A stretch of 64,000 nucleotides of DNA from Octopus vulgaris (lineage: Eukaryota): positions 40,548,001 to 40,612,000 of the forward strand of contig OX597838.1 in assembly GCA_951406725.2 (NCBI GenBank), written 5' to 3'. The notes under the pieces are model-generated. The model ran no database searches and was not told the origin of the DNA. It saw only the letters and a list, made by a program, of their open reading frames with translations. Made by a program: the position numbers and the translations under genes. Positions 2,261 to 44,759 of the stretch are shown here, in pieces. Position 1 is the stretch's first letter. Every line of letters begins with the position of its first letter.

Positions 2261-3139
2261 TAATCAAGTAAATTAACGCAAAAGGCCGAAGAGATTCGTA
2301 GCATCACGACAATTCATTGCATCAATGAGAGCACAACAACCGGGTTGGTGGTAAACCGTGGAGGGGAACTTCAACTGGTTTGTACTGTCCAGGATTAGCA
2401 TTTAGCTTCATTAGACAATCGAGCAAGTTCGCTTGAAAGAGAAAGATTATCCGCTGAGTGGGCGACGTCTCGGTGCCTCATAAATAACTGCCGAGTGGTG
2501 GCTTTTGAATAGTGTGGCACTACTCACGAGTAATTTGTTCTTTCATTAGCCAACCAAGCAAATAAACAAGAAAGAGAATGTGCGCTTGCTTCCGTAGAAA
2601 CACAGAGGCTCAGTGCATCATTAATGCCACATCAGTCACGTGGTGATTCTTCAGCTGAGTTGGATTGCTCGGACTGTAGCTTATAGCTTCGTTAGATACT
2701 AGGAAACTCTAATTCCTCTTATACTGATACCAAATATTGCAACAGCTTAACTACACAAAATCCGATTGTGCTTAAGTAGTCATTAACCGAATGTGGCCGA
2801 ATGCCTCCATTGGTAAATAATAACGAGTACACAAAACTGAAGCTTAAGATTTTCGAGTAAAAGAAGGACACACCTTCTCTCAGTATTCTGATCTATTTCC
2901 ACGTCATAATAAATATTTAATTCAAGTTCCTCTAAAACAGCATTATCATCGAATGTTACTTCGCTGTCTTGAACTTTTCTTGGAGAGAGAAGGAAAAGAT
3001 TCTTATTAAATTTTAATTTAGCAGATCTTTGTTCAATTTACCATTTGTCCAAAGTTTGTTGGAATTAGTCACAGCTTAATGGCCTTTCCCAATCCTACAT
3101 ATTAATGTAGGTCAGATTGTAATTTCATGGGAGAAAACA

Positions 3140-3390
3140 CCGTCACCAATGCTACCACCACCACCACCACCACTAATATCGACACTTCCAGTTCCAATAG
3201 CAACATCAATAACAACAACAGAACACCAACATACGGCCCTTACCTCAAACACCAACAACACCATTTCCACTCCACTATCACTACTACCATCACCTCCTCC
3301 ACCACCAACCACACCAGCACCGTCACCACCACCAGCACACTACCAACACCGTCTCCATCTCCACCCCACTCAACAACAGCAACAACAACT
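3140..3390. repeat. Degenerate (CCA/CAA)n low-complexity tract
   Basis: Imperfect trinucleotide repeats that produce the poly-T and poly-P ORFs. Confidence 0.8.
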
Positions 3391-4043
3391 AGGGACGCTG
3401 ATATTGCTGCATCAACCATGCTGTCATCAACCATGCTGTCGTCTCCATTGCTCTTCGAGTCACGTCGAGAGAACCTCTCGGTGGTCGATGAATCTACAGA
3501 AAATAGAAGTCAAATTGCTTTATACTATCTTGTATCCGCGTTAAAACAACGTTAGGTAACATTGAAGAACATGATCTCACAGACGTTATATGTGAAAGGA
3601 AGATTGAGATGAGGCCAGCTTTGATCCTAGAGACAATGACCCAATCGGGCCTTAGCCGAGGGTTAAACAACGTCAACAACAATAACGAAGACGACGAATC
3701 AAATTGCTAAGATGAAACTATTTGAGTGCTGAAATGTGATGATTTGTTCAGAATCTGAAAATATATTTTGGCTGAAGTCGAAACCTTTTCAGAGATTGTT
3801 TCTTCGAGGCTCAAGCCTCTCCATCTCACTATTTATGAGGTGGCTTCCTACACACTCGAGGATTTGGAATCTGCAGAGCATCTATCGACAAGTCAAGGTG
3901 AATTTGAAGCAAGGAAGTATCTGTGCAGCTCCGAGTATCATACTCCTCCTCTTACCAACCAACCACTGCCCTATTACTAACACGATATATTACTGGATTC
4001 TAATCTTTTTTTTATTTTGTAATTGCTTAGTCAAAAGAGAAGT

Positions 4044-34498: not shown

Positions 34499-35098
34499 TA
34501 TTTCTTTATTGCGCACAGAAGGGTGGGGGCTAAACAGAGGGGACAAACAAGGATAGACAAAGGAATTAAGTCGATTACATCGACCCCAGTACGTAACTGG
34601 TACTTATCTAATCGAGCCCGAAAGGATGAAAGGCAAAGTCAACCTCGGCTGAATTTGAACTCAGAACGTAACGGCAGACGAAATACCTATTTCTTTACTA
34701 CCCACAAGGGGCTAAACACAGAGGGAACAAACAAGGACAGACATAGGTATTAAGTCGATTACATCGACCCCAGTGCGTAACTGGTACTTAATTTATCGAC
34801 CCCGAAAGGATGAAAGGCAAAGTCGACCTCGGCGGAATTTGAACTCACAACGTAACGCAGACGAAATACCTATTTCTTTATTACCCACAAGGGGCTAAAC
34901 ACAGAGGGAACAAACAAGGACAGACATAGGTATTAAGTCGATTACATCGACCCCAGTGCGTAACTGGTACTTAATTTATCGACCCCGAAAGGATGAAAGG
35001 CAAAGTCGACCTCGGCGGAATTTGAACTCAACGTAACGCAGACGAAATACCGTTAAGCATTTCGCCCGGCGTGCTAACGTTTCTGCCAGCTCGCCGCC
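34499..35098 (-). mobile_element. SINE family C trimer (one head, three tandem bodies)
   Basis: Units start at 34499, 34688 and 34871. There is a single GGCGGCGAGCTGGCAG head at the 35098 end. Confidence 0.92.
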
Positions 35099-42458: not shown

Positions 42459-42714
42459 GCGCATTAACGCATTCGTACGTAAATGTTGTTGAGTTGAATC
42501 GTTGAAGGGTCGGGCAGCCACTTGGGCTATTGAGTTACGCGCTTTTTTTACGTCCACGAATTAGATTTTACTTTATTCTGCGGGATTTTTTTTAATAAAG
42601 AGTTGTAAGTTCAGTAGTAAGTTCAATATAACTGACCCAGCAACAGAAATTTCAAACTTCTCTCTTTAAGATACAACTATTATTATAAAGAAACATACAC
42701 CCAATAGAAATCAC

Positions 42715-42750
<36 letters not shown>

Positions 42751-42809
42751 ATGTGTGTGTGTGTGTGTGTAGTTTGCAATGTTTCACCAAATAGAATTAT
42801 AACTGTTAT

Positions 42810-42874
42810 TAAATATGACTAGAGTATTAGAAACCCCTACAATGTAGGGGTTTCTAACACCCTAGTTACATTTA
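42810..42874. repeat. 65-bp imperfect palindrome with a perfect 15-bp inner stem
   Basis: TTAGAAACCCCTACA-A-TGTAGGGGTTTCTAA core, extended by transition-type mismatches. Confidence 0.85.
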
Positions 42875-42875
42875 G

Positions 42876-43610
42876 TGCTCTAAAGAACCAAATTGATCTC
42901 AACAGCAGTGAGAAAAAACCGTTGAGAGTACCAACTAAAGATTTCATTACCTTCGTGTGCTCAGGTCAGCGGATCCGTTTCAAGAAGAACAAGAAACTTC
43001 CTGTGAGAGAAGAAAAGTGAAACGGCTATTGGAAGGGGACTGCAGATTTTCCAGGGTGCCAGGGACTCTTTCCAATCCCAGTTACGAAAGAACTGGTCAT
43101 TTTAATGTGGTGTGAAAGAAAGAAAGTTGTGAATCTAATCGAGTTAACGGTTCCTCATGAAGATAACATGGATGCCACTCGGGCTCGAAAGATTGACCGT
43201 TATGTAAACTTCCTCGAGAAATGTGAAGAGGCAGACTGGAAAGCGGAACATTTTCCTATCGAAGTCGGATGTGGAGGGTTTGTTGGACACAGCGTGAGAC
43301 GACTGTTGTTATCGTTAGGCCTAACTCATCGTAAGGTAAATACCACCATGACCGATATCCGAACTACAGTGGAGAAGGCGAACCACTGGATTTGATTACA
43401 AAGAGACGATGAGCGAAGGCTAGAGAAATATTGAGTTATATTTAATAACCAGTGGATCTAACAAGCAAGGCCTCATATCAGTGAGGGGGGATGCGTATTG
43501 ATGCCGTCGAGAGGTAGGCCCCGAAACGGCATGCATTCTCTCCTGATGACCCCATACACTTGCTGGTTTCCGGTATGCGGAGTTCTCGACTGGTAGCACT
43601 TGCATGTGCA
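42876..43610 (+). mobile_element. HERO/NeSL-like RLE LINE 3' fragment (endonuclease domain plus structured 3' UTR)
   Basis: Single-frame ITFVCSG...W...FP...MWCERKKVVNLIELTVPHEDNM...RKIDRY...FPIEVGCGGFVG...EKANHWI*LQR. IELTVP, PIEVGCxGF and W(I/L)W are hallmarks of HERO-type RLE domains. Confidence 0.85.
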
Positions 43611-44759
43611 TGTTGTTTGCAAGACACACACATATATAATATGTATACAGACACACACCACCTCGCCTCTCCCTCCCTTCCTAACCCCCCTCCATAGAGC
43701 CGTATGGGCGTCTAACCATTTTTTCTCGAACACCGTTTCTTTTTCATCATATATTTCCTACCGCCTTTTCTTTTTTTCTATTATTTGTGATGAAGAAGAA
43801 CTAGATTCCGAAATGTCAAGTCTCTATCTCTTTTTTTAAGCGTTAAACTAATACAGCATTTGTTAAGACTTGTCCTTCCATGTTATCTTTTTTGTGCTCA
43901 TTGCCTAATGTATATATGTGTGAGTGGGTGTGGGGATGTTTGGTTAGGCGTTTGGATGGGTGTTTGGGTGTGTACTTGTGTGTTTATGCGAGTGTGTGTA
44001 TGCATAGAACACGCCCAAAAATTACTAATAGTTTCCAATTGAAAAACAGGGCCAGCCATTTTGAGGAGAAGGGCTAATCGAAACGACCGACTCAAGTATT
44101 TGACTGGTACATTATTTTTATCGACCCAGGGACAATGAAAGGCAATTTTTAAAAATTGCTGGATTTTAACTCAGAACGTGAAGACTCAGAAAATACCGTG
44201 AACCATTTTTTTTTTTTACGCTGTCATATGTTTTCCACTTACATATATGTGTGGGTGGGTGTGGGGATGTTTTACATTTCCGAAAACTGTGTCTTGAGAA
44301 TTCCTATATGTTTTACTACAGTTCCAATTTATGATACTCTAATCATTTATGCTGTTGTTGCAGTTTAGCCCTAGGCCACACCTCGAGGAACATATCTGTA
44401 GCCAAGAATATCCAAGGTCTAACTTGTCTTCTCTTTTTGTCCTTTCTTTGGGGAGGGAATTCATCCAGGCCCACATTAAATAATGCGATTTTATTTTTCA
44501 GACATTAAGATGTTATTTTATGGAGACTTGGCTGCTATCTCTAGCACATTGAGTGACCACATTCAATGAGTGACCTCCAATGGCTCTCTCTCTCTCCCAC
44601 TGGTGTAAAATCACGCACAAACAGACTCACACAAACACACGCTCATTCACTTATATGAACACCTACATATTCTCACACATCAGGGATTCAATATCCGTGA
44701 AAAAAATCCAGTTTGAAAGATTTGAAAGACATCAAATGCCAACGTTATTCAACCGCATA

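Follow-up and report, generated by a model that had tools for sequence, protein, structure and literature searches.

Hammerhead ribozymes were split by Eckert et al. (2023) into three blocks, S, G and C, which the available text of that report assumes to be uninterruptible (PMC10085705). In the type-SGC hammerhead (HRIMA-1 and variants) stems I and II are tied together by a helix that has its 3' strand placed between stems III and I, and Eckert et al. described this link as hard to fit to the crystal structure (PMC10085705). The published SGC descriptor requires CUGAUGA to be followed by G or UG and then by stem II, and in all hammerheads known to its authors no more than 1-2 nt separate CUGAnGA from stem II (PMC10085705). 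Related type-SGC RNAs cleave in vitro, and type-SGC ribozymes are slow, with rates of 0.007-0.19 per min (PMC10085705).

Among retroelements, as far as the available text of the following reports goes, hammerheads sit in the pLTRs of Penelope-like elements, which form partial head-to-tail copies of more than unit length, the hammerhead being contained in the part that is repeated (Cervera and de la Pena 2014, PMC4209133). A circular template has been proposed for these elements (PMC4209133; restated in bioRxiv 10.64898/2026.07.22.740005). In animal non-LTR retrozymes, type I hammerheads carried by non-coding repeats of 150-450 nt cut multimeric RNA; RtcB circularises the monomers efficiently, and the circles have been proposed to serve the RT as templates for tandem cDNA (Cervera and de la Pena 2020, PMC7229834). 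In the case of R2, the RNA is released by self-cleavage of a 5' HDV-like ribozyme (PMC13580325).

The locus compared here with these systems lies in the window, i.e. the whole 64,000-nt stretch of Octopus vulgaris DNA that was analysed. Its features are the following.

42865 to 43626, + strand: 5'-truncated, decayed fragment of a 3.74-kb RT+RLE (HERO-like) LINE, unit positions 2970-3734
43021 to 43434, + strand: C-terminal RLE part of the ORF
43459 to 43470, + strand: strand X, 5' side of the closing helix, with partners 43550-43553 and 43559-43565
43471 to 43486, + strand: hairpin arm of the predicted four-way junction, 6/6 bp
43487 to 43490, + strand: strand Y, the 10.x strand of stem II, with G10.1 at 43487 and partner 43519-43522
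43491 to 43496, + strand: strand Z, 5' side of the helix tying the far ends of stems I and II, with partner 43533-43536
43501 to 43514, + strand: block S, with the 5' strand of stem III, predicted cleavage after C43508 and the 5' strand of stem I
43517 to 43532, + strand: block G, with the 11.x strand of stem II, GAAA at 43523-43526 and the 3' strand of stem III
43537 to 43549, + strand: 3' strand of stem I and CUGAUGA core, with C3 at 43543, G8 at 43548 and A9 at 43549
43550 to 43565, + strand: strand X', 3' side of the closing helix, immediately 3' of A9
43566 to 43626, + strand: tail up to the fixed 3' end of insertions (presumed priming point), without poly(A) or repeat tail

The 3' UTR contains the motif, 67 nt downstream of the family stop codon at 43432-43434. 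A first-pass annotation had proposed a pseudoknotted hammerhead fold that is not a circular permutation of the known types, and its core assignments were reproduced: stem III (43501-43507/43526-43532) pairs at 7/7 positions, stem I (43509-43514/43537-43542) at 6/6, the triplet GTC ends at C43508, GAAA occupies 43523-43526 and CTGATGA 43543-43549. This fold was found to be kept in HERO-like 3' UTRs, being complete in 46 of 82 related loci. Other parts of the proposal had to be revised. The span given for the motif (43501..43557) was too short, as it begins at about 43459, and the strand order, regarded then as undescribed, is the S-G-C order already published as type SGC (PMC10085705). Stem II had been called essentially unpaired, with CCCC facing CCCC. 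Its partner is supplied by the upstream strand Y: 43519-43522 pairs with 43487-43490, and 43550-43553 pairs with 43467-43470.

Young copies of the element, 99.5% alike, define a unit of 3737-3738 nt with one ORF of 1115 aa and the predicted cut site at unit position 3617. The only Pfam match of the unit protein was PF00078 (RVT_1), and of its PDB matches, which were R2 and L1 proteins, the best were to R2 over the RT region. Pfam gave nothing significant for the window's RLE fragment; in the 1115-aa protein, CCHC and PD-(D/E)-type RLE motifs were read by eye. The HERO label is provisional and follows the first-pass annotation and a likeness to fish elements. Homologous protein matches include fish and lancelet. 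In three related loci (L133, L136 and L141) the reading frame appears to run on past the RLE into what may be a ubiquitin-specific-protease-like region, judged from a motif; no hammerhead motif was seen in these loci. Insertions of the octopus element have 77 distinct 3' termini (one of them a mis-sorted junction), which fall at unit positions 3734-3738 and carry no tail. Across the 77 distinct 3' flanks, nothing beyond a few AT-rich bases is common, in agreement with the HERO clade being described as mostly without target-sequence specificity (PMC4640811). No target-site duplications were evident in 27 insertions.

Over 766 nt, the window's own copy has 86% identity with the young full-length unit at locus L046, which belongs to the youngest subfamily. 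Its RLE ORF carries a premature stop at 43393-43395. Two G-to-A changes in strand X leave 6/7 distal and 2/4 proximal positions paired, and a small deletion shortens strands Y and Z, with Y reading GGGG at 43487-43490 and GGGGCC in the young family. Having a broken ORF and a single decayed motif, this copy is probably inert; intact motifs are found for example in L046 (8650-8765), L098 (4938-5060), L104 (3669-3787), L119 (1778-1886), L166, which has U3-A8, and L169. Two further repeats were noted in the window. A long imperfect inverted repeat at 42808-42876 abuts and overlaps the 5' end of the LINE fragment and has weak miRNA-like matches. At 34526-35051 a 183-bp unit is repeated 2.9 times with 94% identity, with related pieces seen by eye near 44040-44200; this is probably another interspersed repeat.

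Relatives were collected with an alignment of 34 homologous proteins, and the best 80 of 184 confirmed metagenome-contig loci together with 2 loci in genome bins gave the 82 loci, with protein identities of 28-53% to the query. Downstream of the ORF, 9 loci besides the 46 complete ones were too short and 27 were unparsed. By eye, the unparsed loci comprise about a dozen decayed versions, 2 that are SGC-like and about 13 without the motif. These motif-less loci count against the reading, and lie mostly on other branches of a quick tree that was used only loosely. The two loci in bacterial genome bins (L173 and L174) are LINEs with the motif and most likely represent animal contamination. In the viral contigs searched, no relative was found. 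Regarding existing models, Rfam gave no hammerhead match up to E of 10 for window positions 42500-44500, and 0 gathering-level matches in 9 loci. The published SGC descriptor misses the window copy and a young copy, and matches 3 of the 82 loci via 2-bp wobble stems.

In the octopus genome itself (2.8 Gb), 30 aligned tail copies, taken from the best 40 of 2554 candidates scored, all have the motif and a shared end about 118 nt past the predicted cut. These copies had been chosen for their similarity and each decays on its own, so variation among them was not counted as evidence of selection. The earlier idea that the motif defines the 3' end of the element does not fit, as copies end about 118-122 nt downstream of the predicted cut site.

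Covariation was analysed on 37 sequences, picked at about one per family, of which 4 with long linkers or a poor parse were dropped for MAFFT. The remaining 33 were aligned by sequence only, with 56% column identity. Over helices II, Z, III and I, 89.4% of the cells were paired versus 62.8% after shuffling, and 198 cells showed double changes versus 57; none of 500 shuffles reached the native pairing or double-change count, and slid controls were 35-45% paired. Three rows, including the window's family, are misaligned at Y and Z, a bias that works against this result. Covariation of stems I and III, which had been named as a check on the fold, was borne out with 94.5% and 93.7% pairing and 5 doubly changed pairs in each. 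The stem II helix formed with strand Y was 91.5% paired, and helix Z, the tie between stems I and II, 80.9% with double changes in 6 of 7 pairs.

A canonical stem II, with its strand right after CUGAnGA, was 45% paired, as high as in 84 of 500 shuffles, and was rejected as being at chance level. With it falls the need for a dimer, which had been suggested earlier, since all helices are completed within one molecule.

Strand X and the hairpin gave native versus cross pairing of 0.97 vs 0.48 and 0.94 vs 0.57 (36 sequences). As their 5' strands were located by pairing, the fair control is a shuffled search, in which 0 of 540 controls reached the lowest native score. This control, together with the same arrangement being complete in 46 of the 82 loci, shows that the arrangement is not due to chance. 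Altogether, a hammerhead-type fold is very probably under selection.

Read from 5' to 3', the strands follow the order X, hairpin, Y, Z, stem III, H17, stem I, short linker, Y', GAAA, III', Z', I', CUGANGA, X'. The real stem II thus consists of strand Y paired with the bases preceding GAAA, and strand X pairs with the bases directly following A9. In 32 of 36 sequences X, the hairpin and stem II abut without any unpaired junction base, so that a four-way junction takes the place of the A9-G10.1 link. Argued from topology, helix Z would be the equivalent of the type-SGC interaction helix. In 24 of 36 sequences a kink-turn signature, tandem GA plus a 3-nt bulge, separates stem III from helix Z; bulge sizes of 2 or 4 gave 0 matches. 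Such a kink-turn would fold Z back so that it reaches the distal ends of stems I and II, which is the link noted above as difficult to reconcile with the crystal structure. It is absent in the other 12, the window's family included, and the geometry there is less clear. Nested folding assigned low probabilities to stems I and II (0.10 and 0.20), with a method that cannot model pseudoknots.

The motif shares with type SGC the S-G-C order, the core nucleotides, stems I and III, the short linker between stem I and stem II and the helix tying stems I and II, with its 3' strand between stem III and stem I (PMC10085705). In contrast to type SGC, its block C is broken, with the 10.x and interaction strands placed 5' of block S; A9 and G10.1 are separated by a four-way junction built from a closing helix and a hairpin, and many of the motifs carry the kink-turn signature; and it resides in LINEs, whereas the published SGC ribozymes, in the text available, come from metatranscriptome assemblies (PMC10085705).

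Two variants were seen among the relatives. L138 and L139, distant elements with 30% protein identity, have the same split fold with 28-nt linkers, L139 with a period of 5.0 kb. L169 (about 1045-1135) and L168 belong to a long-branch RT+RLE family in which the ORF is followed, at a distance of about 116 nt, by an apparently canonical type-SGC hammerhead without the split, with a 6-bp stem II after CUGAUGA and a G-run/C-run interaction; L168 diverges 3 nt past the core. This single family could be a link between the canonical SGC and the split form.

Whether the fold is a catalyst was judged from the core positions. All motif loci have the CUGAnGA, GAAA and NUH triplet of the core; as the parser forced GAAA and a near-CUGANGA, only H17, N7, position 11.1 and the 3-8 pair are free tests. 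At H17 the 46 loci have C in 20, U in 16, A in 10 and G in none, though G makes up 29%. N7 takes all four bases (36 sequences), the G10.1-C11.1 pair is present in 35 of 36, with G10.1 coming from the upstream strand Y, and the pair 16.2-15.2 switches together with the triplet. When positions 3 and 8 were left free, a scan of 306 kb gave 50 matches, which are not mutually independent; all were pairable (C-G 45, U-A 3, U-G 2). C3-G8 covarying to U3-A8 is a core pair of natural hammerheads according to the available text of Perreault et al. 2011 (PMC3088659), and in the motif this change is probably one event in one subclade.

Judging by these positions, it is likely that the predicted cleavage after H17 occurs. 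Two points weigh against catalysis. Given the spacing of at most 1-2 nt in known hammerheads, an insertion of two helices at this place may not support it, and a competing fold is present in the window's family.

R2-type proteins bind their template in the 3' UTR, which is also where the motif sits. It could thus be a hammerhead-derived, non-cleaving docking fold for the RT-RLE protein, and the head-to-tail copies would be due to an RT that, on reaching the 5' end of a linear RNA, jumps back to the 3' end of that same molecule. The chance-level pairing of the canonical stem II is in line with this, as are insertions that end downstream of the cut site and so imply that some templates span it. 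A docking fold, however, has no evident need for an H17 that is never G (0 of 46), for a free N7 between fixed bases, for G10.1-C11.1 or for a pairable 3-8, and the helices do not conflict with a hammerhead core once stem II is formed with the upstream strand. For these reasons, and for those concerning the jump given below, we regard this explanation as unlikely.

Additional insight was gained from the structure of the insertions, where copies of more than unit length joined head to tail, absent from the first-pass annotation, point to a circular template. Among 17 long loci, chosen for long ORFs or tandem spacing, 7 combine a full unit with a partial tail in head-to-tail arrangement. A census of 5' ends was then based on the unit's first 240 nt as query: the best 40 of 89 candidates were scored, 3 matches that start inside the unit were left out, and the 37 examined represent 36 insertions. 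This ranking under-samples copies stopping deeper in the unit; copies stopping at the junction would rank top. The unit junction was crossed in 30 of the 36 insertions, by extensions of 9-1977 nt (median 243), and none of the 36 stopped within 5 nt of it. Likewise, no insertion stopped within 8 nt of the cut site, 22 of the 30 crossers ran beyond it, and 18 of the 30 contain two whole motifs. No junction length change was found in 47 junction reads, duplicates included, from copies 77-100% alike.

The two repeats of an insertion resemble each other. A total of 19 private variants, in 8 of 23 insertions, were common to both repeats, and the repeats of L049 differ at 2/962 sites vs 11/962 to the nearest other copy. 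Such shared private variants indicate that both repeats come from one template. In the foreign loci, the UTR runs into the ORF N-terminus in 11 of 82, several contigs wrap with a period of 3.6-5.0 kb, and the motif lies upstream of the ORF in L098, L101, L115, L116 and L164; because short-read assemblies collapse repeats, these loci demonstrate the existence of the junction and no more. In L053 and L022 (1294-1412) an internal or upstream segment is inverted, resembling the inversions of twin priming.

These observations bear on several alternatives. RLE LINEs are often target-specific (PMC4640811, available text), and the tandems could therefore be separate insertions, a truncated copy having entered the 5' end of a full-length one, with the motif unrelated to them. 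This is contradicted by the age, subfamily marks and private variants that the repeats of one insertion share; in addition, no lone copy begins at unit position 1 among the 36 insertions, and the flanks of other copies are unrelated. We consider separate insertions extremely improbable.

The ribozyme could also be used as in R2: a read-through transcript would be trimmed at its 5' end by the upstream copy, and the template would be linear RNA. The release of R2 RNA by its 5' ribozyme (PMC13580325, available text) is a precedent, and a whole motif does precede the ORF in 18 of the 30 junction-crossing copies. A template trimmed only at the 5' ribozyme would however cap insertions at the cut site, with a pile-up there and none past it. 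As 22 of 30 pass the site and 0 stop within 8 nt, 5' trimming is largely refuted and very unlikely. Nor could a linear monomer cut at both ribozymes yield the ORF, since its priming point would be only about 120 nt from its 5' end.

A further explanation is that cleavage does occur, its sole role being to keep transcripts low, to destroy them or to regulate translation, and that the template is the uncut read-through RNA of a partly tandem parent. Type-SGC ribozymes being slow, at the rates given in the available text of PMC10085705, uncut RNA could persist; the existence of a competing fold and of contigs spanning the cut site agrees with this. Under such inheritance, an upstream partial repeat could only shrink with each generation, yet extensions of 9-1977 nt occur at all ages, and the two repeats of one insertion are homogenised. 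Read-through of this kind is rather improbable.

Repeats from separate insertions would not have variants in common. Two options are left, a closed circle and a flawless jump back onto the same RNA. A jump within one molecule gives shared private variants equally well. It would need an efficiency near 100% with no base added or lost, as not one of the 36 insertions ends at the junction and the junction reads are free of indels.

Two observations are less easily accommodated by a circle. Firstly, 6 of the 36 insertions (L084, L088, L089, L090, L091 and L190) stop at unit positions 30-57. These stops could mark a linear 5' end, which counts against the circle; lying just before the end of the first lap, they could also reflect an RT stalling on meeting its own start, or a transcription start. 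The second concerns internally deleted copies, which were found in L071, L076, L079, L083, L086, L087, L091, L183, L184, L186 and L190. About 260-850 nt remain of their 5' part and 300-630 nt of their 3' part, and most of these copies cross the junction. Their breakpoints differ, and cluster near unit positions 680-850 and 3310-3440. The deletion of L073 was matched in full only by itself among the best 40 scored matches, i.e. no spread of deleted units was seen, and this counts against the best explanation.

Junction-spanning contigs occur in the sequencing runs X1, X5 and X6, and not among the X8 contigs shown; none of these runs is recorded as RNA, and taking them for RNA is a guess. No pile-ups were seen, which contigs would not reveal in any case. 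A 1283-nt contig of X1 covers the whole of an internally deleted unit, running across both the junction and the cut site, and its ends overlap by 25 nt. It fits a circle, and also a transcript of a partly tandem copy; with an overlap too small to prove a closed loop, it is a weak hint. Similar deletion joints occur in X1, X6 and X8 contigs, that of X6 matching the L073/L183 deletion, and the joints in run contigs are not GT-AG.

Overall, the explanation that we prefer, with a probability of roughly 0.62, is that a split, type-SGC-like hammerhead self-cleaves and that the element is copied from a circle, a proposal made from sequence. A transcript spanning two copies would be cut at both ribozymes and release a monomer. 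Hammerhead cleavage would supply the ends needed for ligation, and the monomer would likely be ligated into a circle. The RT would then prime inside the circle, about 120 nt past the cut, and copy more than one lap, and a competing fold or a bound protein may switch the ribozyme off. Extended to the clade, with odds a little better than even, autonomous animal RT+RLE LINEs would retrotranspose via a covalently closed RNA circle. The circle would be the product of a seventh kind of hammerhead architecture: a four-way junction would interrupt the supposedly unbreakable block of CUGAnGA and stem II, with a kink-turn as brace. Without true 5' or 3' RNA ends, priming would be internal.

The proposed circle has its closest counterparts in Penelope-like elements and retrozymes. 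With the former, the octopus LINE shares partial head-to-tail copies of more than unit length and a hammerhead in the repeated part (PMC4209133). It differs from them in having an R2/L1-type RT and a C-terminal RLE-type domain instead of a Penelope RT/GIY-YIG, and in a hammerhead that is not the minimal, dimer-dependent type I. With retrozymes it would share the cutting of multimeric RNA, an RtcB-type ligation and circles as the source of tandem cDNA (PMC7229834); unlike these non-coding repeats, its unit is an autonomous 3.7-kb coding element. Like R2, the LINE is an RT+RLE non-LTR element with an RNA predicted to self-cleave. The ribozyme class and position are different, and R2 linear RNA starts at the cut site whereas LINE insertions run through it. 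Thus, the motif is likened to type SGC and to the retrozyme/Penelope circle, yet fails a defining feature of each.

The block order has already been published, and the build with a split stem II is new as far as the searched literature shows. No description of the motif or of circular templates in HERO elements was found there; Repbase Reports and most subscription journals lie outside this search, so that a note on tandem HERO elements is possible. In their available text, neither PMC4640811 nor PMC13580325 mentions the motif or circular HERO templates.

If the preferred explanation is true, the hammerhead fold would extend beyond the six permutations thought possible, and the motif would be, as far as our searches show, the first non-circularly permuted hammerhead in animal genomes, with thousands of copies. 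An R2-group LINE would gain a circular template, and target-primed reverse transcription would start inside an RNA without a 3' end. The idea of a circular template, which comes from Penelope elements and retrozymes, would become directly testable in an autonomous element with a single ORF and with young, intact copies.
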